64,000 bases of DNA from Candidatus Iainarchaeum sp. (GCA_018304425.1 JAGVWE010000004.1:219189-283188), one strand, 5' to 3'; shown: positions 17,951 through 39,047, counted from the first letter of the stretch. Notes: generated by a model from the sequence alone, not told the origin. Numbers and translations: made by a program.

Positions 17951-18787
17951 TTACTTGGCTGCCCCCAATGGTTCCTCGTCCGCGGGCTGTCTTTCGGTAG
18001 GCAAACCCGTCGTCGGCCCCTGCGGGCCCACGCCGCCAGGAGAAGGTTCTTCTCCGCCTTCTGTGATAGGCCCGGTTGGCCCTGGTCCTCCCGAGCTGGG
18101 TAAGGACCCCCCTGCGCCGCCGCATTCACATTTTCCGGGGTCGTCAAACCCTGACGCTAAACTATATGCACATTGTTTTCCAGCCGTCGCACAAGTATGC
18201 GTGTTACAAATCTGCACTCCTTTGAGTGCCTTAGCCCCTGCCCCCTTTTCTGCCCCTTCATTAAGAATTTTCTGTTTGTCTGCGGGGCTGAATGCACAAC
18301 CAGCATTGGGATTGCCGGAAGTGTTTGGGCCAGTCGGTGCATTTCCGCCGGACACGGGGGCTCCACCGCCTGACGGCGTGCTTGGCCCTGTAGGGCCTTG
18401 GCTGCCGCTTGACGGCGGGGTTCCTATCGGCGTGCAAACACAGTCATACGTGCACTCGACATGCACCTGGGTGTTGTGTGGGTTGCATACTGCCATTGTA
18501 AGCTCATAATTATCTGGCTTGCAATACTCGGTTGCCGTGTCCTTGCAGTTTAACTCTGCGTTTCTCTTGCATGCGGTGGTGTCGTTTTCTTCACTTATCC
18601 TTTTCTCTTCTGCCTCGCAGGCAGCCTCCCGTTGCTCAGGCGCTGTTCCAGGCGGCACTTTTACGGGCACCTCCCCAAAAGTTGACCTGCCTGTTTCAGT
18701 TGCCTTTCCTGCGATGGGCAAATTGCAGCCCGCCAACACAATCAAGGCGCTTAAGGCAAGAAGCAAGGCAAACCGGTTGAATTTCAT
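17951..18787 (-). CDS. Cys-rich lipoprotein with Gly/Pro-rich linkers
   Basis: Signal peptide MKFNRFALLLALSALIVLAG|C with a lipobox, two small Cys-rich domains, and G/P/T linkers. Confidence 0.8.
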   Translation of the reverse strand: MKFNRFALLLALSALIVLAGCNLPIAGKATETGRSTFGEVPVKVPPGTAPEQREAACEAEEKRISEENDTTACKRNAELNCKDTATEYCKPDNYELTMAVCNPHNTQVHVECTYDCVCTPIGTPPSSGSQGPTGPSTPSGGGAPVSGGNAPTGPNTSGNPNAGCAFSPADKQKILNEGAEKGAGAKALKGVQICNTHTCATAGKQCAYSLASGFDDPGKCECGGAGGSLPSSGGPGPTGPITEGGEEPSPGGVGPQGPTTGLPTERQPADEEPLGAAK

Positions 18788-22450: not shown

Positions 22451-23878
22451 TTACCGGTAGCGGTTGGGGCCGCGTTCTTGGCTCCAGTAGTCGGGTTGTG
22501 CGTAGGCCGGGAACCCGGTGCCAGTGCCTTGGGTGCTTGTGCCCGTCGTTCCCGTGCCGGTCCATTCGTTGTCCGCGCCCGTGCCTGGCACGCTGCCGGT
22601 TGGTTGCTCGCCGCTTGGAATCGTGGTGGTTTCGGTTCCGTCGAGGGTGGGGTTATCGGTTGTCGCGGAACCCGTGCCGGTTTGGTTCACGGCCTGCACG
22701 CCGCCGGGCCCGCATCCCTCTCCCGGTTCACCTGGTTCCCAGTTCACGCAGGTGTTTCCGGGCTGCTCAGGTGAAACGGATTGGTTTTGGGCGGTGCTGC
22801 CGGGGCAGAAGCATTTTTTTTCGGAGTCCCAGTCACAGTGGTCCTTCTTGTTGGAGCAGAACTTTTCTTTGCAGACGTCTCTGGCCAGTTGGTCGAGTGT
22901 TTTGCTTGGGTTCTTGGGCACTCTCTGTGCCACTTCGCGGTCGTCATCCTCGGTCCACTTGCAACCATCCCCCGTGGTCGGCCCGCCACCCCCGCCTCCT
23001 CCTCCAGTCGTTGGCGGGCTTCCTCCGGTGCTTCCCGTGGGTTTGGGGATGCAGGCACAATAGTCTGCTGTTCCCTTGCCACACGTTCCCTTGCCGCCAT
23101 CGCACTCGCCGGCTTGGCCGCACTGCGTCCAATACAGGGCCGCATCATTTTTTCCTTGGCCGGCAGCGGCCTTCGTCGAGCAATCAACGTCTGCCTGGGT
23201 CGCCTGGTTGGCGCCACTGCCGTCGCGGGGTGCTTCGCCGGCTTGGGTTCCTTCGTCCTCGCCGCAGGGCACGCAGTTCTTGTTCAGTATTTTGCACTTG
23301 CCCTCGCCCTCGCAGGTGCCGCAGGCCGTCTCATAAGCCGCCTGCCACTCCGTTGGGTTCTTTTTCTTGCTCTGGTGGGATTGCACCAAGGCCGCATCCG
23401 CCGCTTTCTTCGCGTCCGCATTGCATTCGTTGCTTGAAGTGGTCGGGCCACCTGCAGCTCCGCCTCCTCCGGAATCGGGGCTGCCCCCGCCAACTGAGGT
23501 GGTGCCCGAATAGCACACACAGGAATAGTCATAGGTTACGACCCCATAATACTTCGAAAACCCCCTTTTCACTTCATATCCTGTTACCTTTACGGTGGCT
23601 TTCCCGGAATTGCAGGCCTCCGCCTTGCAAAAAGCCGCGCACCGCGTGTCGGCGGCGGTCTGGGCTTCGACCGCGCAACCTTTCGCGGCAGCGTCCTTTT
23701 CCTCCTGGCTTGGCGCTCCGAACATTCCAAAGGAACCGCATTCCTTCTTTACCCCATCTTCATTTTCTTTCGCACAGACCACCGATTCACCGGCAAACCC
23801 AGTCGAGGGAAGGGTGCAACCAGCCAGCACGATTAAGGCGCTAATGGCTAAAATGAGCAGTAATTGGCGTGTTTTCAT
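22451..23878 (-). CDS. Cys-rich lipoprotein, paralog of 17951-18787
   Basis: MKTRQLLLILAISALIVLAG|C lipobox, then several small Cys-rich modules separated by G/T/P-rich linkers. Confidence 0.82.
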   Translation of the reverse strand: MKTRQLLLILAISALIVLAGCTLPSTGFAGESVVCAKENEDGVKKECGSFGMFGAPSQEEKDAAAKGCAVEAQTAADTRCAAFCKAEACNSGKATVKVTGYEVKRGFSKYYGVVTYDYSCVCYSGTTSVGGGSPDSGGGGAAGGPTTSSNECNADAKKAADAALVQSHQSKKKNPTEWQAAYETACGTCEGEGKCKILNKNCVPCGEDEGTQAGEAPRDGSGANQATQADVDCSTKAAAGQGKNDAALYWTQCGQAGECDGGKGTCGKGTADYCACIPKPTGSTGGSPPTTGGGGGGGGPTTGDGCKWTEDDDREVAQRVPKNPSKTLDQLARDVCKEKFCSNKKDHCDWDSEKKCFCPGSTAQNQSVSPEQPGNTCVNWEPGEPGEGCGPGGVQAVNQTGTGSATTDNPTLDGTETTTIPSGEQPTGSVPGTGADNEWTGTGTTGTSTQGTGTGFPAYAQPDYWSQERGPNRYR

Positions 23879-23927: not shown

Positions 23928-26900
23928 TTAACTGTTTCCCTGGATTGCCGTGGAACCCGTTCTTGGCGGACTGCTTGCCGAGTAGCCAATGCAGGTCTTT
24001 CCGGCTTCCAGCTTCTGCGTGAAGTCGTGGATGCTTTGCTTGGCCCCTGCTTGCTTGTAGATGCGGGTGGGGTCCCAGAAGAAGCTGACGCTGGTTCCCT
24101 CTTCCCGGGCGCAGAGCAGCTGGCGTTTAACCAGGCTAAACACGTCCTCCACCGAGTTGATGTAATCGCTGGTCGCCCTTCCCGGCCGGTTGTATTGCAT
24201 GCTGCTGATGCCCTGCAGTTTCACCACGGCACCGTACTCGTCTGCCGTGAGGAAGTTCAGGGAACCCTTGGGTTCTTCGGCCCGCAACACCGCGCTCATG
24301 TGCCTGGGCGTGTAGATAATGGTGCGCAAGTCCACTTTGCCAGCATAATCCGCCTTTGACCAGTCCACGGTGTACGCGTTCTGGAAGTTGAACAAGCGGT
24401 CTTTCTGGGTCGCAGACCTATCCGGTTTGTGGAAGAAAGCCTCGGTGACGAGTTGGCCGTCGAAGTTCAGGCAAGCCCCCGCGCCGCTCCACTCCGTCAA
24501 GCTCGTGCCCGTGTTCACCGGCAACTCCTTGTCAGACAAGAGGTAGAACGCCCCAAACGGTTCGGTGCTTATCTCCTTCTTGTTCATCTCCAGCACCACG
24601 GGCGTGGCATAACTGGGCGCCATCGTCATCTTCACGGCGCCCTCTCCCTGGGTCTCCATGCGCAACACGATGCCCTTGAATTGCGGCGACGTGTTGATGG
24701 TCTTGATGTCTTTTTCGATGGACGTGAAAATCTTGTTCATGGGGTTGGAGCCCGCATCCGGGTAGCTCGTCAAGGCCACGGCACCGTTGTCAATCCGGAC
24801 CGTTTCCGTGGGGTTGAGGTTCACGAAGGAAACCCCGTAGCCCTGCCGGTCAAACCGGTCCTTTTTGAGGCCCACGAGACCGTCAAAGGGCAGCCGGTAG
24901 AACATGGAGTTCGGCACCGGGTCGGCCACCCGGTACAGGGAAACGCTCATCTTGCCTTTGACGTTGCCTTGGTCGTCGAAGAACCGCCAGTCGTTCGTGA
25001 ACAGGGGGCCCAGTTCGACTTCGTATATGCCGGCCTGAATGGTGTTCACGTTGTTTTCGAATCGGCGGGTGAAGAACAGCTTGTTTTGCTGCAGGTAAAG
25101 CTGGTTGAACCCGTACTTCTTGTTGCCGGGCGCGGTTCCCAGGCTATGGAAAGCCGTGTCAGCGTCGGCAAAGGCCACGTTCGTGTAATACTCGCCGAAG
25201 TCCTTGATGAAGTCCTCGGAATAGCCGTCGGCCATGAGCATGGCGTTGAACTTGGTCAACTGGTTGAGGGCCTGGACATTGGGCACGCGGGCAGTCCAGT
25301 TGACGGACGAATCCGCCTTGATGAACCGGTTGATGGTGGACTCCCCATACGTTGTCTCCGTGCTCCGCGGCGTGCCGCACCCCGTTTTCTGCTCGATCTC
25401 GCTGGGCTGCGGGTTGAGGTTCACCCTGAACGCGAACGCCACCGAAGCCGAGTCAATCGAGGCAGCCGAGGACGAAGTGACTTCCGCCACCGCCGTGTAG
25501 ATGCCGTCCGCGAGGTCGGCCATGATGCACTCGCCGGTCTTCGAGTTCACGCCCGCGAGGTTGCTGATGCCCGCCAAGGCAATGGTGCAGGTTTTCAGGC
25601 CTCCCGCCGTCCCGTTCATGCGCACCGAAACGCTGGCATCCGCAGGCGCCGTGCCGTTGTTCGTGGCAGTCACCTGGACGGTCATGTCGTCGCCGTTCTG
25701 GGTGCCGATGATGCTGCTTGCGCCCACGCTTCCGGCATCCACCGTATGCAGTGCGTTGTCCGTATTGAACTGGGTGGTCACCTTGCCGGTTTCATCCGTT
25801 GAGGGGCACGTGAACTGGTAGTTGTTGGCCTTGAGGAATTCATCAAACGCCTCCAGCCTTTTGACTATGGCGATGTTCAATTGCGTGGCGTCGCAGTAGA
25901 TGCCATTGGCATTGTCCGCGTTGCAGGAGTCCGCCTGGATGGCGTCCGAGCCGTTCCAGTTCCAGTTCAGCCTGGTTTTGGGCAAGGCTCCCGGCCCGTT
26001 CACGCCCAAGGAGGTGCCTGCATTGCACGCAAACGTGTCAAAGTCGAGTCTCGGTATCTCGAGTTTCTCGGTTTGGGTGATGAAGCGCACGTGGATGGGC
26101 TCCCGGTACTCGCCGTCGCTGGCTTCCACGCAGGCGCCCTGGTTGGTTGGAGCCCCTATCCAGTAGCCCGCGAACTCCCCGTTATCGCACGTAACGGCCG
26201 CTTTTCCCGCATGCAGGGGGTCCCCGTGGTGGTGGATCTTGGTCAAAATGGTGGCAATCGCGTACGTCGGCTTTTCGTCCAAGATGCCGAGGTTCTGGAA
26301 GTTGACGCCCACGGTTTGAGTGGAATTCTTTGAACCGCAGTCCAGGCAGTCCGCAATGGCGAGGTTGAACATCCCGACCAGTTTTTCCTTGTCCAGGATG
26401 ACGCTTTGCGCGTCGGGTGGGAGATAGATGGCCGCGCCCTTCTTTCCGACCCCGTTAAGGTTGATGACGTAGTCCGGCAGGGTATGCGTGTCCGTGGTAT
26501 CATGGCAGTCCTCGTCGAAGACGCCGAATATCGCCAGGACCACGGCCACGACTACGGCAACGATGATTCCAATGAGGGGCACCGCCCCAGCAATCACGAC
26601 AAGGGCACCCACCACGACTCCCGCGGCAATGGATTTCCCAACCCCTGACTTGGAGGACTCGTCCCACGCGCACATGTCGGCTGTTACGGCTACGTCTTCC
26701 CTCAGCTTGAAGTTCTTGAGGATGGCCGAGTCGGTTTGGCCGGGCGGCGTGTAGAACGTGTACTTGTCGAAGTCCAGGTAGCCGTCGGACTCGACAATCA
26801 CCTTGTACTCTGCTATCTGCCGCCAGCCTCCGCCGGCCGGGCGCGCGTACACGGGAACACCGTAGTAGCCTGGCACGGTTTTCTTCGTCACGAGGACGTC

Positions 26901-29900
26901 ATACGTTTTATCGGGCTTGGCGTTCGAAATCTCGAAGGGCTCGAGGTTGATGCCGCCCTCGCTGGCGCCGCCGCGGCAGTCGTCGTGGTCGCAGAACTTA
27001 AAGTCGACGTCCACGTTGCCGCAGGCCTTGGTGTCCACCTGGAACTTTTCGTTGCCGTCCTCGTCTCCCCGCTTGATGCGCACCCCGTTCTGGGAGTCCG
27101 GCGTGAACTTGACGCACTGGTCGAGGTTCGTAATCAGGAGCTCGCCGTCCACCTTGCTCGTGCCCACCGACACCGGGCCGGTGTCGGACAAGACTTCCGC
27201 GTCCAGGATGACCGAGAACTTGGCGGTCTTGCCGAGCACGCTGGCGTCCGGCAGGGGCGTGAAAGTAAGGCTTCCCACGTACTCCTTGTCGGCCGGCACG
27301 GTCTCGAACAGCTTGGTCTGCCGGTTGGACTGCACCAGCATGGTGGGCGCGGCTCCCGCCGAGGTGTCGTTTAACGTGATTTCCACGTAGCCAACGATGT
27401 CTCCCTGCCACACCATCATGGCAGTCAAGTTGTTCAACCCCATGGGGGTTCCGTCTTTCGTGACGCAGTTGTTTTTGACCACGATTTCCTTGACCAGCTT
27501 GCTGGTGAAAGTCGTGTCCTTCCAGGCATTGGGCTGCACGGTCAGGCAATTGGCTATCTTCGGCTTTTCCGCCAAGCCGATGTCCACCTTCAAGGGCACC
27601 GAGTAAACGTAGGTCGCGGTGCGGCTCTCGTTGCTCAACTCGATGTAGAGGCTGCCCTCCACGCTCGTCTTTTCCTTCAACAGCTTGGCCAACGCGGAGA
27701 CCGTGGCCTTGACGTTCAGGCTCTTCGTCGTGTTTTCCTCGAGCCAGAAGGGCTGCACCGTGTACTGGTTCAGGTAGTTCTGCATCTTCTGCAGGTCGAG
27801 GAGGCCCCGGAACTTGTCTCCCTTGACCAGGAGCTTGGAGATGTAGAGTTTCTGGGGCACTTTGCTGGTAATCTTCAGCTCGGCGTCGCGCTCGTTGTTG
27901 GTCGTCAGCCCCAGGGAATAGGTGAGGGTGGCGGGCGAGAAGTCCACGGGCTTGTCGCTGATTTCCAGGGCAACCGCTTCGCCCATGAACCCGCGTTTCT
28001 CGACTTCCACCGTGAGCTTCGTGCCCGGCGGGGAAGCAGGGAAGACGAATTCAACGGTTCCCTTGGGCCCCGTGGTCTTAATCTGCACGGTTTCCGCGAG
28101 GTCGGGCGTGCGGCGCCGCAACCGCACCAGCGCACCGTCGGTGTCAAAGCCCGAGTTCTCGCCACCCGCATAGGTTATGTGGACAATGACCCGGGTCTCG
28201 ATGTAGGCCGGGATAACATCCTGGTCCAAGTCGATTTTCAGCTGCTGCTCGGAGAAAATCGTGAACGCCGTCAACCGGTTGAAGGCCTCCCTCCCGCTGG
28301 AGACCATCAGTTGCTGTACGTTGGTCTGCCCTTGCTTGCGGGCCTCGACTTCGAGCTGGGTCTTGGCGGTCTTGCTTTGCGTGAACCGCCCCAAGCCGAT
28401 GGGCGGCAACTCGAACCGTTGCCCGGTCTCGCTGAAGGGCGTGGAGTCCGCGTTGACGACCGTGTACTTGTCGATGACCAGGCGGTCATCCATTTTGAGG
28501 CCGTCCTGCGTGACCCTTATCCGGAGGTTGGCGTTGTCGTGGACGGTGGGCGAGTCATTCGTGACCGTGCTCTCGAACCGGTACTTCTGGAAGACCCGCA
28601 ACTGGAAGGGCTCCTTCAAGTACACGTCGTCAATGGGGTCGAACACTTTCTCGCTGTAGCAGAAGCCGTTGGCGCAGGACTCGGCCTGGCCGACATTAAA
28701 GGTCTTATCGTAGCTGTTGGCATACAATTCCTTCTTGTCCGCGGTTTCCTTCCTATCCCCCAACGTCGAGTCCACGGGGTCGCGGAGGAACTTGCCCTGC
28801 AATTCCTCGGCTTGGATGCGGTAACTCAAGGGGAGGGCCGCGCCTGCCTGGGCTTCCTGCCTCACCTTCAGCTCCACGTCCACGTTGTAGATGCCGGGCT
28901 GCATGCCCTTATTATCCATCCACGAGACCTCGGCCCACTTCGCGTCCCCGTTCGTCAACAGGGCCCGGTCGTTGCCGGCCGGCGGGTTCCAGGTCGTGCC
29001 CCGGATGATGCTGGTAGTCGGGATGTTCAGGTTGTTGACGAACCAGGCATCCTTTTCCACGGCGTTCTCGGAGCCCGTGCGCAGGAAAAACGTCAAGGCC
29101 TTCAACGTCGAAGCACTCGGTACCTGCACGTAGAACCGCACCTTGTACCTTTCCCCGGGCACCATGGCCTTGACCTTGGTGTTGGTCTTGTCGAACAAGC
29201 CCTCGAACACGATTTTGGGTTCCCTGCCCTCGATTTTTTCGACCAGCAGGGCGTTGAATTCGATGGTCTGGTCGGGGAACACTTGTTCCACCCTGGAAGT
29301 CCAGGAAGTCCTCCCCGTCTTCGAAACCCGGGCGTACACCGCTGTATCGGCCTTTGTCGGGTGAGTGGCAACGCCCTTGTCGTCCGCGGAAAGCGTGCCC
29401 AGTTTGGTGCCCGCGGCATTGAACACTTCCACGTCCACGAAGGGCACGCCCTGCCCGTCCGCGTCCCTGGCGTTGACTTTCAGGGTGCCGAAGCCGATTT
29501 TCATGTCAATGGTGAACTTCGTTATTTGCTTGACCAGCAGTTCCTGTTCCGGGCTCTTGCCCGTGGCGGGGAACTTCTGCGCGTACGCGAGATACTTGCC
29601 GGGCTTCAAGCCCTTGAATCGGACTAGGCCCTTGTCGTCAGTCGATGGCGCGCCACAGGCCTCGCAAATGAACTTGGTCAGCGCGTAATACATGTTGACC
29701 TTGGCGTTGACCACCGGCTGCTTTTCCTCGTCCTGCACCAGCACCTCGACCTGCCCCGAGTTCTCGGGCGTCAGCTTTTCCAGCTTTACCTCGACGTTCA
29801 AGGGCTGGGCCTTCGAGGCGTTGCTCGCGTCAACCGCCACGTCCGCCGAGGAAAGGTAGTCGTCGTGGTAGGCTTCCACGAAGTACTTGCCCTTTTCCTC

Positions 29901-31055
29901 CAAGCTGAAGGTAACCTGGCTCTTGCCTTGTTCCACGGCCTGCGAGCCAATCGCTTCCCCGGTCTCCCGCTTGAGGGTCACCTTGGCCGCCGTCACGGCG
30001 TTCCCCGAAACCTTGTCCAAGACCTTGACGTTGATGACGGCCTGGACTTCCTTGGTCAGGGTCACGTCAACGGTCTTGGTCTGGTCCGCGTAGACCACGA
30101 ACTTGTCGGACTGCGCGTTCGCATACGCCCCCGAAGTATCCGTTACCACCACGTAATAGGTGCCGGGCGTCGTCTTGAAGGCCTTCTCGCCGTAACTCGT
30201 GAAACCCTGGTCCACGGAAACCCCCACCGCGTCCCTCAACTCGACCTGGGTGCCGTCCAAAGCCGGGTTCAACCGCACCAGGATTCCTCCCTCCCGGACA
30301 ACGGCCTGCTGCAAGTGCAATACGCCCGAGCCGTCGTCGACAAACGAGTCCGAGGAAATGCCGCTGCCCTCCACGTTCACGAGCACGCTGCCACAGCCGT
30401 CCGGCGGCACATAGGACAGCGTTCCATTGGTCACCGTGTAAGTGTCCTGCAGGAAGCTCACTCCCAGGTTCGAGCAACTCAGCCGCACCGTCAAGGGCTT
30501 CAAAATCTTTTGCCCCGAGGCATCCGTGAAGGAAATGCTTTTGCCCAGCGCTTCCGGCCCCAGGCCCCCATTCCCGGTTCCCCCCGCTTTTTCGGCCAAG
30601 GCCAGCCGTTGCTCGGCCGTGTCCTTGCCGAAGACAAACGACTTCTGCACGCCTTCAAAGCCGTCCCTGGTGACTATCAAGGCCACCTGGCTGCCCTCCG
30701 GCAACTCAATGGATACCGCGCCCTGCGAGTCCGTGGTCAACGTGAACGTGTCCGCGTCCGCGGTCAAGGAAACCGAGGCATTGCCCAACGGGTTGCCGGC
30801 CGCGTCCGTGACCTGCAGGCTCAAAACGGTTTTGGGCCCCAATGGGGGCGGCGTGAGGCCCGGCTGCAACAAGAAGAACGCGCCCACCGCGCCGACAACC
30901 AGCAGCAGGACCAGCAACAGGAAGCTGGGCATGACCTGGTCGATGGGGTCCACGACCTTGTAAATCGGGATGACCTTGTTGAGGCCGTCCAGTACCTTGT
31001 AATAACCGTCTTCCAGGGAATAATAAAAGTCTTTGAGGTTCTGGCCCAAGCCCAT
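23928..31055 (-). CDS. Giant membrane-anchored surface protein, paralog 1 (2375 aa)
   Basis: Conserved N-terminal motif plus TM helix, tandem carboxypeptidase-regulatory-like beta-sandwich repeats (V.D..G.P+..A.V), an internal ~40-aa hydrophobic hairpin, and the CDATQ...LPFDG module. Confidence 0.9.
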   Translation of the reverse strand: MGLGQNLKDFYYSLEDGYYKVLDGLNKVIPIYKVVDPIDQVMPSFLLLVLLLVVGAVGAFFLLQPGLTPPPLGPKTVLSLQVTDAAGNPLGNASVSLTADADTFTLTTDSQGAVSIELPEGSQVALIVTRDGFEGVQKSFVFGKDTAEQRLALAEKAGGTGNGGLGPEALGKSISFTDASGQKILKPLTVRLSCSNLGVSFLQDTYTVTNGTLSYVPPDGCGSVLVNVEGSGISSDSFVDDGSGVLHLQQAVVREGGILVRLNPALDGTQVELRDAVGVSVDQGFTSYGEKAFKTTPGTYYVVVTDTSGAYANAQSDKFVVYADQTKTVDVTLTKEVQAVINVKVLDKVSGNAVTAAKVTLKRETGEAIGSQAVEQGKSQVTFSLEEKGKYFVEAYHDDYLSSADVAVDASNASKAQPLNVEVKLEKLTPENSGQVEVLVQDEEKQPVVNAKVNMYYALTKFICEACGAPSTDDKGLVRFKGLKPGKYLAYAQKFPATGKSPEQELLVKQITKFTIDMKIGFGTLKVNARDADGQGVPFVDVEVFNAAGTKLGTLSADDKGVATHPTKADTAVYARVSKTGRTSWTSRVEQVFPDQTIEFNALLVEKIEGREPKIVFEGLFDKTNTKVKAMVPGERYKVRFYVQVPSASTLKALTFFLRTGSENAVEKDAWFVNNLNIPTTSIIRGTTWNPPAGNDRALLTNGDAKWAEVSWMDNKGMQPGIYNVDVELKVRQEAQAGAALPLSYRIQAEELQGKFLRDPVDSTLGDRKETADKKELYANSYDKTFNVGQAESCANGFCYSEKVFDPIDDVYLKEPFQLRVFQKYRFESTVTNDSPTVHDNANLRIRVTQDGLKMDDRLVIDKYTVVNADSTPFSETGQRFELPPIGLGRFTQSKTAKTQLEVEARKQGQTNVQQLMVSSGREAFNRLTAFTIFSEQQLKIDLDQDVIPAYIETRVIVHITYAGGENSGFDTDGALVRLRRRTPDLAETVQIKTTGPKGTVEFVFPASPPGTKLTVEVEKRGFMGEAVALEISDKPVDFSPATLTYSLGLTTNNERDAELKITSKVPQKLYISKLLVKGDKFRGLLDLQKMQNYLNQYTVQPFWLEENTTKSLNVKATVSALAKLLKEKTSVEGSLYIELSNESRTATYVYSVPLKVDIGLAEKPKIANCLTVQPNAWKDTTFTSKLVKEIVVKNNCVTKDGTPMGLNNLTAMMVWQGDIVGYVEITLNDTSAGAAPTMLVQSNRQTKLFETVPADKEYVGSLTFTPLPDASVLGKTAKFSVILDAEVLSDTGPVSVGTSKVDGELLITNLDQCVKFTPDSQNGVRIKRGDEDGNEKFQVDTKACGNVDVDFKFCDHDDCRGGASEGGINLEPFEISNAKPDKTYDVLVTKKTVPGYYGVPVYARPAGGGWRQIAEYKVIVESDGYLDFDKYTFYTPPGQTDSAILKNFKLREDVAVTADMCAWDESSKSGVGKSIAAGVVVGALVVIAGAVPLIGIIVAVVVAVVLAIFGVFDEDCHDTTDTHTLPDYVINLNGVGKKGAAIYLPPDAQSVILDKEKLVGMFNLAIADCLDCGSKNSTQTVGVNFQNLGILDEKPTYAIATILTKIHHHGDPLHAGKAAVTCDNGEFAGYWIGAPTNQGACVEASDGEYREPIHVRFITQTEKLEIPRLDFDTFACNAGTSLGVNGPGALPKTRLNWNWNGSDAIQADSCNADNANGIYCDATQLNIAIVKRLEAFDEFLKANNYQFTCPSTDETGKVTTQFNTDNALHTVDAGSVGASSIIGTQNGDDMTVQVTATNNGTAPADASVSVRMNGTAGGLKTCTIALAGISNLAGVNSKTGECIMADLADGIYTAVAEVTSSSAASIDSASVAFAFRVNLNPQPSEIEQKTGCGTPRSTETTYGESTINRFIKADSSVNWTARVPNVQALNQLTKFNAMLMADGYSEDFIKDFGEYYTNVAFADADTAFHSLGTAPGNKKYGFNQLYLQQNKLFFTRRFENNVNTIQAGIYEVELGPLFTNDWRFFDDQGNVKGKMSVSLYRVADPVPNSMFYRLPFDGLVGLKKDRFDRQGYGVSFVNLNPTETVRIDNGAVALTSYPDAGSNPMNKIFTSIEKDIKTINTSPQFKGIVLRMETQGEGAVKMTMAPSYATPVVLEMNKKEISTEPFGAFYLLSDKELPVNTGTSLTEWSGAGACLNFDGQLVTEAFFHKPDRSATQKDRLFNFQNAYTVDWSKADYAGKVDLRTIIYTPRHMSAVLRAEEPKGSLNFLTADEYGAVVKLQGISSMQYNRPGRATSDYINSVEDVFSLVKRQLLCAREEGTSVSFFWDPTRIYKQAGAKQSIHDFTQKLEAGKTCIGYSASSPPRTGSTAIQGNS

Positions 31056-31067
31056 GTCGTTCTACTC

Positions 31068-34000
31068 CTACTTTGACTCGATGCATGCCTTTTCAGGCGT
31101 GGTGGCCGTCGTAATCGCCAATTCCTCGGCTTTCATGAAGTCCGTGTCCGAGACCTTCTTGGGGTTCCACCAGAAGTCCGCCCGGGCATCCGTGCCCGAA
31201 ATGCAGACGAACTGTTTTGCCACCAGCTTCAAGACGTCTCCAATGCTTTCCACCTGGTGCCCGTCCAGCAAGCTGCTTACCTCAGGGACACCGTAGAGGA
31301 GGGCATCGCTTCCCCCGCCTGCCTGGGCAATGAATGATGCCTTGTCGTTGCCCACGTTCAAGTGGATTTTGCTTTCCTGGTTCTGGGGCGTATAGTAAAT
31401 GGTCTTCAGGTAGACGTTGCCGTAGTCCAGGGGCTTGCAGAACTCGAAGCCATAGCTGGTCGCGGCGATTTCCCCGCCCAACAACGCGCACTTGGTTTCC
31501 AGGCCGTGCTGGTCCGGCGTCTCGTAGAACGCTTCAATCATTCTCCTATCGTCGAAGCTCGAACAACTATAGCCTATGCCGTTCCACTTCGAGGAAACCG
31601 GGCCCAGGTTGGCGGCGTTGCCCCCGATGGCGAGGCTGTAGAACGCCCAGGCCTCGTCGTTGCGGTTGGTCATCTTCAGGATGAGGGGCGTGGCCTTGCT
31701 GGGGCTGTAGGTTATCTGGTTGATGGCTCCCCGGCTCACTTCGAGGATGGTGCCCCTTCGGTCGACGTTGAGGCGCTTGAAGTCATTGGACTTGTCGAAG
31801 ACCTCGATGACTCCGTTCTGCACCGGCGTGCTGCCCGGGATTTCCACGGTGTGAACGGCTTCCTCGGCCGGGTTCGCGTTCACCTTGATGCGGTCACCCT
31901 TGTAATTGACTCCATAGCCTACCCTCCCGTTGCTGACCCCGATGGGGCCATCGAAGGGCAGGTGGTAGAAGGGGCTGTCGGGTTCGGGGCTGTCCAAGCG
32001 GTCCAGCAACACCTCGATGCGGGCCGTCAACTTGTTGCCGTCGAACAGCTTCCAACGTGCATCGTCGTAGGTGATGTTGAGCGTGACATCGTAGATGCCG
32101 GGCCCCGGCAGCATATAGCCTTCGGGGTTCTGCTGGCCGAACCGGGGCTTGAACGTGAACCGTTCCGGGTCCCGGAAGTACTTGTACAAGCCGTCCACGG
32201 GGTTCTTGTATTCCGTGGGCGCGCCGAAGAAGCTCTGGGTCCGCGCGTACTCGTCGAAGTCGCGCTGGAAGTCGGCCGTGAAGCGGTCCTTGATGAGGTT
32301 GGCCTTGAAGTGGATCCGGTTCAGGAAGCCCTGCGCCGTTGGCCCAGTTATGCCGGAAGCCGCCAGGAAGTCCTCCATGCGGCTCGTCGAATACGGGGTG
32401 CACTGGGCCAGGGAATTGGTTCCCACCGAGAAACTGACTTCGAGGCTGTCCGAGCCCGCGTTGTTCTGGCAGCCCGGGCAAGCCAGGTTGGGCAGGATGT
32501 CGGCCCGCACCCGGTAATTGCCGTCAGGCAAGCCGGTGAGCTTGCATCCAACCGTGGTCGACTTGTTGACTTTCACGGTGAGGCTCTCGGGACTGCACTT
32601 GTAGTTCTTGCCGCTCAGCACTTCGACGGCGTAGGCCTTGACCTGGACCTCGACTTCGCCGGGGTTGTTGTTGGTCACTTCCATGGACACGTTGTAGTCG
32701 CTGCCCGTCCGCTTGGCTTCGAGGCGGCTCAAGCCGATGTCCTTGCCTCCGATGGTCGCGGTCCTGGTGCTGAGGGGCTCCAAGGCCGTTGGACACGAGT
32801 AGGGCGTGTTCCGCTCGATGAAGTCCTTTTGCAGGGTGTTAATCTTTTGCAGCAAGGCGATGCTGAACTGCGTGGCGTCGCAGAATATCGCGGTACCGTT
32901 GTCGGTGTCGCATTCGTTGGCGGTTATCGCTCTCCAGCCCCAGTCCAGTTTGATGCGGGGAATGGCGTCCGGCCCGGTTCTACCCGTCCTAACTCCCGAC
33001 TGGCAGTTCATGAGCTCGGGTTTGTAGTCGATTCGGGCCTCGGGGGGCACGGCGTTGAACTGCAACCGGAACTTCTGGTCCATGGGAACCGGTTTTTCCT
33101 CGTCCAACTTGGCCTTGTCGAAGTCTTTGGCGTCATAGGTCTTGTCCGCGTACTTGTGTTCGATGGCTTTCACGACCAGGTACTTGACTCTTGGGTTCTC
33201 GGGCTCGGTGGTGAAGCGCGGCGTCGAGTTGTTCGTGAACTTGAACTGCTGTTTTTCGGTCCTGGAATTGTTTTTCAGGTCCCGGCTCGTGCTGATGACG
33301 GGCTTGCCGTCGCCTTTCTCGCGGCTGACCAGGACTTCCGTGTCCTTGACTCCTTCTTCCTTGTCCGCGGGGAAGCCCGTGTACAACTCGAAGCCCTTGA
33401 TTTCAATGTCCTTCTGGATGGTGGGCATGTCTTCCTCGCCCTGGCCATAGTAGGAGACCACGGTTCCAATGGCCGTGGCCAGCAGGGCCTGCACGGCGCT
33501 GCCCTTGCTGCCCGTGATGGCACCCGTCAACGTGCCAATGATGTCAGTCGGGCTCACGCCTCCGCTACTGCCCCCGCTTCCCCCACTTGGCGCGGCCCTG
33601 CCCGTGGCCGGCAAGCCGGCGACGGCCGCGCCAACACTTCCACTCGGTTGTTGGCGCGAGTTGCCGCTTAAGGCCGGAGCAGCCGACAACGTATCTAGTT
33701 TTTTGCCGATGTCGGCAATGAGTTTATTAATTTCCTTTTTTTGGGTATCGGTTGCGGCCGGATTGTTCTTTAAGTCGCTCAAGTGTTGCGCCGTCTCCAG
33801 ATAGAAGCCTCTTTTCGTCTTTGCGTTGTCGCTTGAGTTATCCATTTGAGTTATTTGCTGGGTGTAAAGCCTAATGCTTTCCTGGATTAACGCAGTGGAG
33901 CCAGGTTGTGCCGCTGGTTGCGTTCCGCCCATTTTTTCTTCGATGGCCTTGGCTTTCACGCGCCATTCGCTGATTTTCACTTGTTGTTCCGTGGACGGGT

Positions 34001-37000
34001 TCGCGGCCGCGGCTACATCGAGTTTTTTCCTCGCTGTTTGGAGGTGGAGTAGCTTCTCGGCCTCTACTTTTGCGCTTTCAGCGGCCGCCACTTCCGTCCC
34101 GGCCTCGCTGAGCAGCGCGTCCACGTTAACGGTAGTCGTTTGCCCTTTAGCCTTTTTGGCGGCCAGTACCCTGTTATAGGCAGCCACTATGCGGTCGGCG
34201 GCATCTTTTCCAATGTCGCCGGTGAGCTTGTCCCCGTTTGCATTCAGCACGAAGTATTCGTCGCCTGATTTGACAAGGAAGGCAGCGCCGTCGGGCGCCG
34301 CGAGCTCGTCAATTATTTCGTCGTTTGAAAGCCCGGTAAACGTGGCGATGGTTGTGACGCTGTTATCGGAATCCAGGGAGCGCTGCGTTTTCGCAAGCTG
34401 AGCGGATTTGGCGGGGTCGACGCCGGCAGTGGACCCGCTTGTCGTAGTTGTGGGGGCCGTGGAGGCGGGTTGTTTCGCGAGGTCTGCTTCGAGGCTCTTG
34501 GCGAAGTCGTCGGTCACGGTTTCACCACTGCTTTTGACCACCCATTTGCCGGTGGGCTTTCGGATGTATTCCGTGCCATCCTTGGTCACGGTTTTCTCGT
34601 CCTTGGCCGCCACCTTGTCCTCGCAATGGTTTTTCCGGCAGACCTGGCCTTGCCCGCAGTCCTTGTCGTCCGTGCACTCCGGGCCGGTGATGGCTTCCGT
34701 GATGCTCTTGCCTTGGATGACGCCGGCCAGCGTCCCCAAGAGGAACGTTCCAATGCCTATTTTGAGGCCGTCCTTGAAGGCCTCGCCCCAGTCCTGGTAG
34801 TTGACGGTCACATCGACTCCTTTTTCGATGCACTTGTTGGTCAACTGCGCGGTGTCATAGCCGTCGAAGTCGTCTTTCGGCTGGTCGAGGACGTCGAACT
34901 CGTACTTGGAGAGCGCCAGGCAACCGATGGAGTCCACGCGCACGCGGATGTTTTTCAGCAACTGTTCTTGTTTCTCGTTCTGGGCCTTGGACTTCACGAC
35001 CACGCCGTACTGGCCGGGAACCTCTTCACCGGCGAAGACCTGCACCTGCTGCGAGCCATCGCCGTCCAACACGAATTCCTTGACGGAGAGTTCGAGGTCG
35101 GACTTCAACTCGAAGCCGGTTTTCCCGCCGCACTTCTTCGTGTTAATCGTGAAGGAGGCGTTGCCTTTCTCGGGCATGGCGATGAGGTGCCGGTCGAAGC
35201 TCACGCAGTCCTTGATGTTCACGATGTTGATTTGCGTGCCCAGCTTGGATTCCAGCAACTGGTCCTTGTCTTCCTTGGGGTTGCGCGCCGAAAAGGAGAC
35301 GTCGGCCTTTGCCTCGCCCATGGTGCCGCCGTAGGGCGTGAAGGTCAAAATCGCGTTCAGCGTTTCCCCGGCCTTCACTTCGCTGACGATGGCCCGGCTG
35401 TACGCGGAGCGCAACTCGACTTCGGTCTGGCCAATGGTGACCCGGTACTCGCCCAACTGGTTGCCTTGGAAGGCGAGCTGGGCTTCGAGCCTGCGCAGGG
35501 GCACGGGCTGGCCGTTAATCGTGCAATTGTTCTGGATCTGGAACTCGACGTTCACGGGGTTGCCTTCGGTGGTTGTCTCCCACTTGTTGCGGGTCAGGGT
35601 CAGGCAACCCGGGCTGTCAACATCGCCGGACAAGCCGATGCCGATTCTGGCCGGTATTTCGAACACCCATTCCTGGCCAAAGTTGGTCACGGTCACCAGG
35701 AACTTGCCGTCCAAGTCCACGCGGTCGGTCAAGGCCTTGCCGTCATCGCTTAAGAACACCCGGAGGGTGCCGTCCAGGGTCTGGCCCGGCTGGATGACGT
35801 AGTTATTGTAGTTCGAGACCAGCCAGTTCCTCGTCTGCTGCTCGTCCAAGAGGTTCTTGAAGTTGCCCACCAACTCGATGGACAGCACTTTCAAGGGGAA
35901 GTTGGCCACGTTCTTGGCGTGGAAGCCGGTCTCGGCTTCGGGCTTGGACTTCGCGTTCAGGCTCATGCCCAACTGGTTGGGCTGGATTTCCAGGATGTTG
36001 GAGGTAACGGTTATCTCGGCTTCCTCTTGGTCGAACTTTTCCTTCTCGCATTGGAGCACGAGTTGCACGCCCGGCAACTGCGCGGGCACGCGAATCACGG
36101 CCCTTCCCTTGGAATCGGTTTTCGCCTTGACGATGACGTTGCCCCGCTTGTCTTCCAGGCGGCAGGTGGCGTTGTCCACTTCGAGGTTGGTGCCGGAGTC
36201 GACGAGGTTGAAGACCAGGTCGTTTTCGATGCCGGAGGACAGCGTGCTCCGCTCTAACTGGATGAGCAGCTGCTTGGAGGCCGCCACCGCGACGTTGATG
36301 AACCGGTCGAAGGCAATCTGCTGGTCGGACACCAGGCGGAAGTTGATGACCCCGTTGATGGCGCGCTGGGTGGCGAACCGGAACCGGCCCGTTATCCGCT
36401 TGTTGGGGGCCAGGTTGCCGACGTCCAGCCGGGGGAACTCGGGGCCGTTGACGTTGCCCACGCGCGGCCTCCCGTCCGCGTCGTTGACCGTGTAGTCCAG
36501 GAAGATGAGCGACAGGTCGGGGTTGGTTACGCGGAGGTTGGCGTTGGTGTGGTACAAGGCCTTCGAGTTGTTGGTGAGCGTGAAAATCATCTCGTATTCC
36601 GTGAACACCTGGGCCTGGTAGGTGTCGGTTACGTTCTCCAAGAGGTCTTCCTGGAGGTTCCGGATGGACGCGTCAAAGCAGAAGTCCTGGTCGCAGAGGG
36701 TGCTGGCCCCGACTTGGTAGGTCTGCTTGTAGGCGTTGTCATACAATTCCGTGGTCTCGATGAAGTCATCCGCCGGGTCCCTGACCACGACCCCGTCAAC
36801 GGCCCAGGCCCGGTAATAGACGTTCAATTCGTCGCCCACGGAAGCCGTTTTCCGCACCTGCACCGTGGCCTCCAACTCGTAGATGCCGGGCTTGGGGTTC
36901 CGCCAGTAGGCGTTCAGCCACTTCGCGTCCCCGTTCGTGTAATCGTAGCCGGACTCGTCGAGGCCGCTGCGCTCGTCGAAGGCCGTTGACTTGATGAGGC

Positions 37001-39047
37001 TCGCGCCCGGGGCATTGACTCCCTTGAGGTAGAGGTCATCCTTTTCCATGATGAGGTCGTCGCCGGTGCGGATGTGGAGGCCGGCCTCCTTGTAGGGGAG
37101 CGCATCCGGCAGCCTCAACTGCCACCTCCCCGTGTACTCTTCGCCGGCCGCCAGGTTGGTGGCCAGCCTTTCTCCCTTGAACAAGCCCAGGAACTTGACT
37201 TCGGCCGGCCGGTCGATGATGCTGGGTTCGAGGACCGCGGTGAAACCCGTGTACCCGCTGGCCTGGATTTTCCGGCTCGGCGAAACATACGTTGAATAAC
37301 CGTCCTTGGCCGCGCTTACATAGACTTCCTTGTCGGCCTTGGTTTCAATGGAGAACGAGCCGTTCGCGTCCGTGTACGAGGCGCCGATTTTGCCGTTGGT
37401 CAGCGTGCTGTACACCGTCACCAGGGCAAAGGGAATGGCCTTGTTGTCCTTGTTGACCGCGTTCACGTAGAGGGTGCCCTTGCCCACCTGCATGGCCACC
37501 GTCACGTCAATGCCTCCACCGCTAGTGGTTCCGCCCCCGAACCGGAAGTCGTTGCTCCGGCCGGCGCCGAACTCGCGGAAGGCAAACGCGTAGTACAAGC
37601 CGGGTTTCACGCCCGCGAACCTTGCCAAACCGTTGGCGTCCGAGGTCTCGCTTTCATAGCCGGCCACGAAATTGGTTTCCGGCACGTACAAGGCCACGCT
37701 GGCATTGTCCACCGGGCTCCCGTCCTCGTCCAAAACCTGCACGGACAGCAACCCGCACTTCTGGGCCGAGCACTTTTCCAACGCGATTTCGGGGGTGTTC
37801 GCGGAAATCCGCGCGCTCGCCACTTTTTCGAGGACATAGCCTGCGGCTTCCACGGTCACCCGGTAGTCCACGTCGTCCGAGACGTTGAACACCACGACGC
37901 CGTCCGCACCCGTTTCAAGGGACTTGAATTCGCTGTCATCCGCGGCCAGCCTCAAGGTCACCCGCGCGCCGGCAAGGGCCTGGCGCGTGGCCTTGTCCAC
38001 GATTTTGAACGCGATTTTTCCCTTCACGTTCGAGGTCAGCTCGAGGTTGACGGTCGCGCTCTGCCCGGCGTACACCGTTATGCGCTCGGATTGCCGCAAG
38101 CCATAGTTGCCGGTGGAGTCATAGGCTTTCACGAGGTAACTGCCCTGGGGCTTGTTGAACACGGCCTGGCCGTCATAAGCAACCGTCGAGTCCACGGGCC
38201 CGACTTCCGGGTTCGCCAGCAGGTCCTCGTAGCGGAACAAGTCCACGTCCACGCCGCTCAGGGGCTGGCCCCGCGCGGAAACGTTGACGATGATCCGGCC
38301 GGCTTCGGCCACCACGCCTTCGAGGTAAACGGTTTTCACGTCCGAGTCCACGCTCACCGAGGCCAGGTTGGCCCACCGCTCGGAGTCGGAGATCGTTGCA
38401 ATCAATTGCCCGCAGCCGGCGGGTTCTTCCACGACGGCTTTCCCGTTGGAGACGACCATGGCGTCAGGCGCCTTCACGTAGGGGCTCTTGCACCGGAATT
38501 CCACGCGCAGTTCATCCGTAATCGGCTGGCCCAACTCGTTGAGGAACCGCAGGGTGCGCGTGCTCGCGCTCCCCGCCGCTGCCCCGCTTTTTTCGAGGGC
38601 AATGGTCTCGGTTTGCTCGTCCGCCGTGGCCTCCACGGACTTGGTCTGGCTCTTGTAGCCCTCGCCTCCCACGGTCAGGGTGACCTTGCCGCCCTTCGGC
38701 ACCCGCAACTGCACCTGGCCAAAGGCGTCCGTGGTCAGGGCCTCGGTTTTTCCGTCCGAGTAGGAGACGCTGACCAGCATGTTGGGCAAGCCAATGTCCT
38801 CCGTGTCCAGCACCCGCACCGTGAGGCTGGTGTTGAAGCCCTGGAAGGCCATCGTGAAAGCGAAGTTGGCGGCCACGGCCAGCGCCACCAGGAACAGCAG
38901 GGCCATGATGGGGAAGCTGGGCAGGATGCGGTCAATGGGGTCAATGATTTTGTAGACCGGGATGACCTTGTCTATCTTGTCGAGTAATGCGTAGTAGCCG
39001 TCCTCGAGCTGGAAATAAAACTCTTTCAATCCATCCAGGAAACCCAT
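31068..39047 (-). CDS. Giant membrane-anchored surface protein, paralog 2 (2659 aa)
   Basis: Same architecture as paralog 1 and collinear with it. Carries a ~380-aa insert between two hydrophobic segments. Confidence 0.9.
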   Translation of the reverse strand: MGFLDGLKEFYFQLEDGYYALLDKIDKVIPVYKIIDPIDRILPSFPIMALLFLVALAVAANFAFTMAFQGFNTSLTVRVLDTEDIGLPNMLVSVSYSDGKTEALTTDAFGQVQLRVPKGGKVTLTVGGEGYKSQTKSVEATADEQTETIALEKSGAAAGSASTRTLRFLNELGQPITDELRVEFRCKSPYVKAPDAMVVSNGKAVVEEPAGCGQLIATISDSERWANLASVSVDSDVKTVYLEGVVAEAGRIIVNVSARGQPLSGVDVDLFRYEDLLANPEVGPVDSTVAYDGQAVFNKPQGSYLVKAYDSTGNYGLRQSERITVYAGQSATVNLELTSNVKGKIAFKIVDKATRQALAGARVTLRLAADDSEFKSLETGADGVVVFNVSDDVDYRVTVEAAGYVLEKVASARISANTPEIALEKCSAQKCGLLSVQVLDEDGSPVDNASVALYVPETNFVAGYESETSDANGLARFAGVKPGLYYAFAFREFGAGRSNDFRFGGGTTSGGGIDVTVAMQVGKGTLYVNAVNKDNKAIPFALVTVYSTLTNGKIGASYTDANGSFSIETKADKEVYVSAAKDGYSTYVSPSRKIQASGYTGFTAVLEPSIIDRPAEVKFLGLFKGERLATNLAAGEEYTGRWQLRLPDALPYKEAGLHIRTGDDLIMEKDDLYLKGVNAPGASLIKSTAFDERSGLDESGYDYTNGDAKWLNAYWRNPKPGIYELEATVQVRKTASVGDELNVYYRAWAVDGVVVRDPADDFIETTELYDNAYKQTYQVGASTLCDQDFCFDASIRNLQEDLLENVTDTYQAQVFTEYEMIFTLTNNSKALYHTNANLRVTNPDLSLIFLDYTVNDADGRPRVGNVNGPEFPRLDVGNLAPNKRITGRFRFATQRAINGVINFRLVSDQQIAFDRFINVAVAASKQLLIQLERSTLSSGIENDLVFNLVDSGTNLEVDNATCRLEDKRGNVIVKAKTDSKGRAVIRVPAQLPGVQLVLQCEKEKFDQEEAEITVTSNILEIQPNQLGMSLNAKSKPEAETGFHAKNVANFPLKVLSIELVGNFKNLLDEQQTRNWLVSNYNNYVIQPGQTLDGTLRVFLSDDGKALTDRVDLDGKFLVTVTNFGQEWVFEIPARIGIGLSGDVDSPGCLTLTRNKWETTTEGNPVNVEFQIQNNCTINGQPVPLRRLEAQLAFQGNQLGEYRVTIGQTEVELRSAYSRAIVSEVKAGETLNAILTFTPYGGTMGEAKADVSFSARNPKEDKDQLLESKLGTQINIVNIKDCVSFDRHLIAMPEKGNASFTINTKKCGGKTGFELKSDLELSVKEFVLDGDGSQQVQVFAGEEVPGQYGVVVKSKAQNEKQEQLLKNIRVRVDSIGCLALSKYEFDVLDQPKDDFDGYDTAQLTNKCIEKGVDVTVNYQDWGEAFKDGLKIGIGTFLLGTLAGVIQGKSITEAITGPECTDDKDCGQGQVCRKNHCEDKVAAKDEKTVTKDGTEYIRKPTGKWVVKSSGETVTDDFAKSLEADLAKQPASTAPTTTTSGSTAGVDPAKSAQLAKTQRSLDSDNSVTTIATFTGLSNDEIIDELAAPDGAAFLVKSGDEYFVLNANGDKLTGDIGKDAADRIVAAYNRVLAAKKAKGQTTTVNVDALLSEAGTEVAAAESAKVEAEKLLHLQTARKKLDVAAAANPSTEQQVKISEWRVKAKAIEEKMGGTQPAAQPGSTALIQESIRLYTQQITQMDNSSDNAKTKRGFYLETAQHLSDLKNNPAATDTQKKEINKLIADIGKKLDTLSAAPALSGNSRQQPSGSVGAAVAGLPATGRAAPSGGSGGSSGGVSPTDIIGTLTGAITGSKGSAVQALLATAIGTVVSYYGQGEEDMPTIQKDIEIKGFELYTGFPADKEEGVKDTEVLVSREKGDGKPVISTSRDLKNNSRTEKQQFKFTNNSTPRFTTEPENPRVKYLVVKAIEHKYADKTYDAKDFDKAKLDEEKPVPMDQKFRLQFNAVPPEARIDYKPELMNCQSGVRTGRTGPDAIPRIKLDWGWRAITANECDTDNGTAIFCDATQFSIALLQKINTLQKDFIERNTPYSCPTALEPLSTRTATIGGKDIGLSRLEAKRTGSDYNVSMEVTNNNPGEVEVQVKAYAVEVLSGKNYKCSPESLTVKVNKSTTVGCKLTGLPDGNYRVRADILPNLACPGCQNNAGSDSLEVSFSVGTNSLAQCTPYSTSRMEDFLAASGITGPTAQGFLNRIHFKANLIKDRFTADFQRDFDEYARTQSFFGAPTEYKNPVDGLYKYFRDPERFTFKPRFGQQNPEGYMLPGPGIYDVTLNITYDDARWKLFDGNKLTARIEVLLDRLDSPEPDSPFYHLPFDGPIGVSNGRVGYGVNYKGDRIKVNANPAEEAVHTVEIPGSTPVQNGVIEVFDKSNDFKRLNVDRRGTILEVSRGAINQITYSPSKATPLILKMTNRNDEAWAFYSLAIGGNAANLGPVSSKWNGIGYSCSSFDDRRMIEAFYETPDQHGLETKCALLGGEIAATSYGFEFCKPLDYGNVYLKTIYYTPQNQESKIHLNVGNDKASFIAQAGGGSDALLYGVPEVSSLLDGHQVESIGDVLKLVAKQFVCISGTDARADFWWNPKKVSDTDFMKAEELAITTATTPEKACIESK

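Follow-up and report, generated by a model that had tools for sequence, protein, structure and literature searches.

We analysed 64,000 nucleotides of Candidatus Iainarchaeum sp. (GCA_018304425.1, JAGVWE010000004.1:219189-283188), hereafter the window, which lies on contig 3 of a 1.48 Mb genome in seven contigs (estimated completeness 92.55%, GC content ~0.59). The genome shows archaeal traits, namely a family-B DNA polymerase and a type-2 methionine aminopeptidase-like open reading frame (ORF), both assigned by eye from the translation, and numerous tRNA genes with introns. Four giant ORFs, P1 to P4, stand head to tail on the minus strand of the window. Our subject is a hydrophobic element in the middle of these chains, which is compact in P1 and split by a long insert at the same site in P2.

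23928-31055, minus strand: P1, giant surface protein of 2375 amino acids (aa), from ORF and translation
31068-39047, minus strand: P2, giant surface protein of 2659 aa, paralog of P1
39058-47253, minus strand: P3, third giant, 2731 aa
51599-60010, minus strand: P4, fourth and more distant giant, 2803 aa

All four proteins start with a conserved segment of ~40 residues that is followed by a hydrophobic helix and then by beta-sandwich repeats of the CarboxypepD_reg type, for which Pfam scores of 62.5 (P1), 108.1 (P2), 121.8 (P3) and 39.7 bits (P4) were obtained at a cut-off of 32.3. With above-threshold beta-sandwich repeats and an N-terminal hydrophobic segment in each case (4/4), they belong to the giant surface proteins with immunoglobulin-like (Ig-like) repeats. 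In P1, the conserved N-terminal segment and its transmembrane (TM) helix precede Ig-like repeats, a mid-chain hairpin and a C-terminal Cys-bearing module, for which no PDB sequence match was found at E up to 1. BLASTP aligned residues 1-1489 of P1 with residues 1-1452 of P2 (29% identity, E 7e-146) and residues 1669-2356 of P1 with residues 2005-2656 of P2 (27% identity, E 9e-57). The alignment stops at the first hydrophobic arm of P2 (arm 1) and resumes ~150 residues past the second (arm 2).

The element of P1 consists of 39 apolar residues in a row (aa 1475-1513, 26517-26633) with Pro1493 in mid-stretch and a 19-residue Kyte-Doolittle maximum of 3.28. An earlier sequence-only reading of the window had set a continuous hairpin at 26518-26635, and its position holds. 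The stretch has the two-span length (~31-40 or more residues) and the hydropathy of a translocon-type TM helical hairpin, with Pro1493 as a turn-promoting residue near the middle. Several relatives have a Pro or a C-x-x-C turn ahead of the last helix.

30849-30956, minus strand: N-terminal hydrophobic segment of P1 (aa 34-69), signal-anchor-like TM, Kyte-Doolittle peak 3.07
26670-26672, minus strand: Cys1462, first half of a conserved Cys bracket at the hairpin base
26580-26633, minus strand: hairpin helix a (aa 1475-1492), by hydropathy
26517-26579, minus strand: Pro1493 and hairpin helix b (aa 1493-1513), the most hydrophobic part, with the Kyte-Doolittle maximum
26505-26507, minus strand: Cys1517, second half of the Cys bracket, within an acidic motif after the hairpin

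At the homologous site of P2, where the sequence-only reading had put two arms around an insert of ~380 aa, the arms were found as described, with 389 aa between them and flanks that are homologous by BLASTP.

34710-34769, minus strand: P2 arm 1 (aa 1427-1446), Gly-spaced, weakly hydrophobic helix, by hydropathy, its pattern conserved in P2-type relatives
33543-34709, minus strand: inter-arm insert of P2 (aa 1447-1835, 389 aa), orphan sequence
34623-34676, minus strand: four-Cys motif opening the insert (aa 1458-1475)
33558-34637, minus strand: tract of low GC content at third codon positions (GC3), ~aa 1471-1830, by per-window GC3
33600-33614, minus strand: P-x-T-G motif ahead of arm 2 (aa 1812-1816)
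33447-33542, minus strand: P2 arm 2 (aa 1836-1867), short Gly-rich helix, Lys-containing turn and second helix

The arms of P2 are hydrophobic, as had been claimed, but only weakly so: their Kyte-Doolittle maximum is 1.41, no window reaches 1.5, and they fall short of the hydropathy of a membrane-spanning translocon-type hairpin. Moreover, arm 2 is not one helix but two short ones, and the order helix, Lys-containing turn, helix recurs in the P2-type relatives. An acidic motif comes after arm 2 of P2.

The insert itself contains a Thr-rich linker, Gly/Ser-rich spacers and four Cys, which form the opening motif that the sequence-only reading had noticed, and it is rich in Ala, Thr, Lys, Ser and Gly (also Glu), like the insert of P4 described below. 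It matched no Pfam or NCBIfam family at or above the cut-off and no PDB sequence at E up to 1. Below the cut-off, the four-Cys motif resembled TIGR04201 (18.3 bits, cut-off 25) and PF23416 (17.1 bits, cut-off 24.6), and the insert SlpA_D2 (13.5 bits, cut-off 24.5). A search of 195 other genomes of the order with arms and insert returned no homolog of the insert and two marginal matches, to arm and flank parts only. Among 1.84 billion representative proteins, two weak, repetitive matches to the insert were obtained at E <=0.001, and the better of them (E 4.5e-10) has 23% identity scattered over 32 stretches.

Comparison of P2 with its nearest relative, P0006, showed 75% identity in the 300 residues before the site and 54.5% in the 200 residues past it, but 19% in the insert, apart from the opening four-Cys motif, which by eye is shared with nearly the same spacing. 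Ten further homolog pairs gave the same pattern of conserved flanks and divergent insert, and the inserts are not related to each other. The proposal that the inter-arm region is replaced while its flanks are kept was thus borne out.

Relatives of the element were collected by searching 61 genomes, our own and 60 of the same order, with residues 1300-2375 of P1. Homologs were found in 57/61 genomes and in all 30 genomes that are at least 90% complete; most lie in open frames of 2300-2900 aa, usually more than one to a genome. The set comprised 80 full-length homologs and three more from the protein database, and summed BLAST scores sorted it into 49 P1-type and 36 P2-type proteins, P1 and P2 included. 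Hidden Markov model (HMM) anchors built from conserved blocks on both sides put the element at the same position in 40 of the 49 P1-type and 33 of the 36 P2-type proteins; eight P1-type and three P2-type proteins without a post-anchor match and one mis-anchored protein (L111) were left out of the anchored set. P0007, which is the same protein as L109, was excluded from the tree and the motif count.

The content of the site differed between these proteins. A compact element of 47-96 residues is present in 29/40 anchored P1-type proteins, 124-416 residues occupy the site in a further 10/40, and all 33 anchored P2-type proteins carry 121-996 residues there. The eight unanchored P1-type proteins all have a long inter-anchor distance by BLAST interpolation. 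In one P1-type protein (L058, G003:C57), the hydrophobic element is missing, and a link of only 18 residues (aa 1466-1483), many of them Trp and Asp, connects the two Cys-bearing anchors, which are therefore adjacent. Cys residues bracket the element on both sides in 37 of the 40 anchored P1-type proteins (neither side in two, one side only in one), which points to a disulfide at its base. Together, the Cys bracket and L058 indicate that the chain leaves the ectodomain and re-enters it at one point.

In a FastTree phylogeny of the 450 aa before the site, the P1-type and P2-type proteins split with full local support. By this method alone, at least six changes between the compact and the insert-bearing form occurred within the P1 clade, and one such change separates two nearly identical proteins of one genus. 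The insert site is a property of the whole family.

Six compact P1-type proteins (L032, L033, L040, L041, L042 and L052) have a C-x-x-C turn, often C-P-P-C, directly before the last helix, and this helix is the most hydrophobic one.

Hydrophobicity differed with the content of the site. At a 19-residue Kyte-Doolittle maximum of at least 1.6, a crude, customary threshold for a membrane helix, 28 of the 29 compact P1-type elements qualified (median 2.38), as did 4/10 insert-bearing P1-type (median 1.56) and 3/33 P2-type elements (median 1.36). Mann-Whitney tests of the compact elements against the insert-bearing P1-type and the P2-type elements gave p = 9e-4 and 3e-10, respectively, values that are overstated because the rows are related. 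With noisy, BLAST-interpolated boundaries, hydrophobicity correlated with length at Spearman -0.24 overall and ~0 within each type.

These values bear on the proposal of the sequence-only reading that the arms are no anchors of the producer membrane but enter the membrane of a partner cell as colicin or translocator hairpins do, and that the insert is a swappable effector carried across. The small genome (1.48 Mb) fits this idea, since small-genome archaea of such kind are often host-attached; the insert is hypervariable, insert-bearing arms lie under the span threshold and may escape capture during export, and the Gly spacing of the arms loosely recalls fusion peptides and glycine zippers. 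However, the P1 hairpin (3.28) and 28/29 compact forms are so hydrophobic that the producer membrane would retain them, and the P1 stretch should partition there during export. Colicin, translocator, toxin and enzyme families were unmatched in the arms, the P2 insert and 19 orthologous inserts, and an effector cargo is not supported. The inserts that can be named are of adhesin type, and the even Cys counts reported below suggest disulfides, which would be ill-suited to a cargo destined for a reducing cytoplasm.

The idea of a swappable cassette had rested in part on the codon usage of the P2 insert. Its enrichment in A/T-ending codons is real: GC3 is 0.668 against an expected 0.857 (z = -11.2), where the expectation was calculated for each residue from the codon usage of the giants themselves, that is, with correction for amino acid composition, which rules out composition as the cause. 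In windows of 60 codons, GC3 was 0.57-0.75 in the insert and ~0.85 in the flanks; the tract contains the interval 33660-34420 noted before, and A and T at third positions are both approximately doubled in it. We then surveyed 38 homologs with inserts of at least 200 residues. Insert GC3 lay under the composition-corrected expectation in 33/38, with z < -3 in 14/38 and z > 3 in 0/38, and the higher the GC3 of the gene itself, the deeper the dip (Spearman -0.64). Cassettes imported from relatives should shift AT-rich recipients upward, and no such shift is seen. A foreign cassette is rejected: the dip is family-wide, runs in one direction and is not specific to this insert, for which no relatives occur in the 195 genomes or the 1.84e9 representatives. 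We read the dip as a probable mark of young or rapidly replaced sequence whose synonymous sites have not yet reached the composition of the host, although a region excluded from whatever holds GC3 high elsewhere would look the same. A local GC3 dip should not be taken for evidence of imported DNA.

As population data, we used the contigs of four additional DNA runs, which belong to three studies; no RNA run with the sequence is listed. The contigs contained low-depth pieces identical to the window, the insert included, apart from one single-nucleotide polymorphism and with no indel, although data in the form of contigs cannot exclude variants. Two joints are listed in these contigs, one a skip whose shorter side has only 21 letters and the other reversing on itself, which we read as similarity of neighbouring paralogs; no alternative junction is reliably supported. 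Target-membrane insertion and effector delivery by the element are unsupported, and we regard them as most improbable.

In the runs X8 and X9, summed contig depth rose to ~11-14 over 34104-34259 and 36975-37167, with loose ends at the borders. The first of these stretches falls within the P2 insert. A more abundant organism in these samples seems to carry short stretches that are at least 88% alike.

The reading that we favour, with moderate confidence, is that the P1 hairpin would be a second anchor in the producer membrane, and that the weakened arms of P2 would flank an exported, fast-evolving display module. To locate the inserts, Cys and charge were surveyed in 39 proteins with a segment of at least 150 residues, 29 with definable arms and 10 without. 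The Cys count is even in 21/21 Cys-bearing inserts (2 to 66, and in many cases no multiple of four) and eight inserts are Cys-free; the four Cys of the P2 insert are an even number, as are the counts in both ectodomains (14 and 14). P2-type inserts show no positive-inside bias (Lys plus Arg 51 on the insert side versus 75 on the outer side). Among 19 inserts scanned with Pfam, two scored above threshold, one for PKD (29.2 bits, cut-off 27) and one for fn3 (26.2 bits, cut-off 25), and two others consist of repeated modules with a Cys content of ~10%; neither these 19 orthologous inserts nor that of P2 matched an enzyme or toxin family. All nameable insert domains were adhesin-type beta-sandwiches or Cys-rich repeats. 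From Cys parity, these modules and the charge pattern, export of the inserts and an extracellular place for those of P2 type, to which the sequence-only reading had pointed from the Cys motif of P2, are plausible.

Several observations weigh against an exported insert. Among the insert-bearing P1-type proteins, the seven whose arms could be defined are depleted in acidic residues on the insert side (Asp plus Glu 14 versus 41), which fits a cytoplasmic loop. The P2 insert is rich in Ala, Lys, Glu and Thr like that of P4, which looks cytoplasmic, and extracellular-type domains occur in only 2/19 inserts, that of P2 not among them. Even Cys counts could also arise from metal sites, and Cys patterns are shared among related proteins. 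If the compact hairpin turns on the cytoplasmic side, sequence inserted there would initially lie in the cytoplasm, and a repeated switch to an exported insert, which needs coordinated weakening of the arms, is awkward. Topology is here addressed indirectly, from hydropathy and sequence, with a crude threshold of 1.6.

The P4 element, which bears on this question, also consists of two arms and an insert.

53705-53833, minus strand: first arm of P4 (aa 2060-2102), by Kyte-Doolittle
52361-53704, minus strand: P4 insert, 448 aa
52295-52360, minus strand: second arm of P4 (aa 2551-2572), by Kyte-Doolittle

The P4 insert has no Cys, Lys/Arg-rich segments beside both arms and a GC3 of 0.72 against an expected 0.84 (z = -7.8). 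P4-type homologs in 27/60 relatives keep flanks and arms but mostly not the insert. By its composition, the P4 insert looks cytoplasmic, unlike the P2-type inserts, and the family may hold both solutions, exported and cytoplasmic inserts.

A P4-like arrangement in P2 would make its arms true TM helices of the producer membrane and its 389 residues an enlarged cytoplasmic loop, which we consider possible but rather unlikely. The P2 site is homologous to the strongly hydrophobic P1 hairpin, and Gly-spaced helices can pair within membranes. At the same locus, P4 offers a Cys-free insert with Lys/Arg borders and a cytoplasmic look, to which the composition of the P2 insert is similar, and the acidic depletion on the insert side of the insert-bearing P1-type proteins points the same way. 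Against this stand the low hydrophobicity of the arms, both in P2 (1.41) and throughout the P2 type (at least 1.6 in 3/33), and the missing positive-inside bias. The insert of P2 contains a Thr-rich linker and opens with a four-Cys motif that is kept in P0006, although its matches to extracellular Cys repeats are sub-threshold only, and orthologous inserts carry PKD, fn3 or 10%-Cys modules, with even Cys counts in 21/21.

The region ahead of arm 2 bears on a possible different origin of the element. The P2 motif listed above is a literal L-P-x-T-G, and P-x-T-G-type motifs lie ahead of arm 2 at loci L074-L110: in the 65 aa that precede the final helix of arm 2, they occur in 17/32 P2-type proteins, whereas 0.031 per 65 aa is expected from elsewhere in the same proteins. 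The element could thus be the relic of a fusion, in which an upstream surface protein, with its C-terminal sorting signal and anchor, was joined to a downstream one that began with a signal anchor; the former membrane-proximal stalk would then be the variable region. The structure of arm 2, helix, Lys turn and helix, agrees with such a joint. The genome also contains a match to the exosortase/archaeosortase family (G000:C1:451927-452664, 26.6 bits, cut-off 25.7) and two proteins that end with a similar Pro-containing motif, a hydrophobic helix and a basic tail; no match to a sortase family was found in our own genome at its completeness of 92.55%. On the other hand, the fused architecture is found order-wide and in both clades (unfused pairs were not searched for), the motif is absent from the P1-type proteins, arm 1 is left unaccounted for, and the link to archaeosortase is by resemblance only. 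The C-termini of P1 and P2 contain no hydrophobic segment and no archaeosortase-type tripartite signal. We judge such a fusion relic to be very unlikely.

Returning to the preferred reading of a second anchor in P1 and an exported display module in P2, we picture the giants as envelope proteins, encoded in tandem arrays across one order of small-genome (DPANN-like) archaea. The element would be a seam between an N-terminal module of ~1450 aa and a C-terminal module of ~700-850 aa, at which the chain may exit the folded ectodomain, make two or three Gly/Ala-rich hydrophobic helices and return to the same point. The compact P1 element, strongly hydrophobic and with a Pro at its centre, is most likely a helical hairpin in the producer's own membrane, and this second anchor would be stapled on the outer face by the conserved Cys pair. 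The seam is a recurrent insertion hot spot. In P2, a lineage-specific sequence of 389 residues parts helices that lie below membrane-span hydrophobicity; this region is most likely exported, and the insert may be displayed on the surface, for example for the recognition of a partner or a surface. Low GC3 would be a general signature of young inserts with fast turnover and not of foreign origin.

A further possibility, which we rate as quite unlikely, is that the seam exists in two topological states, with at least six toggles between them: a compact hairpin in the producer membrane, and exported, weakened, fusion-peptide-like Gly-rich helices that engage the membrane of a partner, with the hypervariable insert setting partner specificity for a host-dependent archaeon.

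Some further features of the locus are recorded here. No internal hydrophobic element was found in P3 by a Kyte-Doolittle scan, and P3 aligns to P1 and P2 mainly over its first ~1300 aa, plus one short C-terminal high-scoring segment pair of 148-235 aa. The P3 C-terminus (39058-39330) contains a cupredoxin-like domain (PF13473, 28.3 bits, cut-off 27) and shows a weak EfeO-like NCBIfam match far under the cut-off. Between P3 and P4, the signal of an ORF of 575 aa (47418-49145, minus strand) is of class III (type IV pilin-like), its hydrophobic helix being preceded by a basic residue and Gly, and the neighbouring ORF of 574 aa (49178-50902) has a Sec-type signal; neither matched a Pfam family. 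Two lipoprotein-like ORFs (22451-23878 and 17951-18787, minus strand), whose signals end in Ala-Gly-Cys, are Cys-rich with Gly/Pro/Thr low-complexity sequence and gave no family match. A paralog on contig 1 (G000:C1:36000-45000) is present in pieces only, in separate open frames of 762, 552 and 1716 aa, and may be a split or decayed copy.

Almost all genomes searched in the order contain the family, as tandem copies, and it has no characterised relative. An attached life on other cells is assumed for small-genome archaea of this kind, and their contact proteins are barely known. The seam concentrates variation in length and sequence, this variation correlates with lost membrane-span character, and it has a signature in codon usage. 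It thus provides a testable handle on which part of the giants faces outside and how fast that part turns over.

A search of the literature found no paper describing the family or its mid-chain element, and we compared the giants with known systems. In pore-forming colicins and type III secretion translocators, a hydrophobic helical hairpin enters the target membrane, and a hydrophobic helix pair is likewise central to the element of the giants. However, no Pfam match to colicin or type III translocator domains was obtained in whole proteins, inserts or arms. Unlike those hairpins, that of the giants does not lie within an amphipathic helical bundle, as far as can be judged from sequence, has no cargo-like domain and, in its compact forms, is hydrophobic enough to remain in the producer membrane. 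With glycine-zipper membrane domains, the arms of P2 and of many relatives share Gly at i and i+4, but PF13488 scored 7.5 bits on P2 arm 2 (cut-off 25, E = 5.1), a likeness in composition only. Pfam searches of the isolated arms gave no Gly-zipper match for P2 arm 1 and the P4 arms, and otherwise chance-level TM matches.

Archaeal surface-layer (S-layer) glycoproteins combine a Thr-rich stalk with an anchor or archaeosortase signal at the C-terminus. P2-type proteins resemble them in the succession of a Ser/Thr/Gly/Pro-rich linker, a short Pro-containing motif, a hydrophobic helix and a basic residue, and an exosortase-family gene is present in the genome; they differ in that the signal-like element is internal, with ~800 more residues after it.

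Translocon-inserted helical hairpins, reportedly described by von Heijne and colleagues in studies of model proteins, consist of two close TM helices with a turn-promoting residue. The P1 element would correspond to these in its ~39 apolar residues with a central Pro, in both flanks lying on the outer side and in leaving no room for a loop domain. Unlike the model hairpins, it has a very large ectodomain at either end and a Cys pair that co-occurs on its two sides, and inserts have split it repeatedly among the relatives, where the arms are then less hydrophobic.

A fast-evolving part, as in the giants here, is reported for hypothetical surface proteins of Nanoarchaeota (PMC6142677). The giants are similar in build to the Ig-like-repeat surface adhesins of bacteria and archaea, with which they share a length of several thousand residues, runs of CarboxypepD_reg, prealbumin-like or Big_1-like beta-sandwiches and tandem paralogs. 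In contrast to these adhesins, the giants would be anchored by an N-terminal TM helix and a mid-chain hydrophobic element, and they vary at one fixed seam rather than in the number of their repeats.

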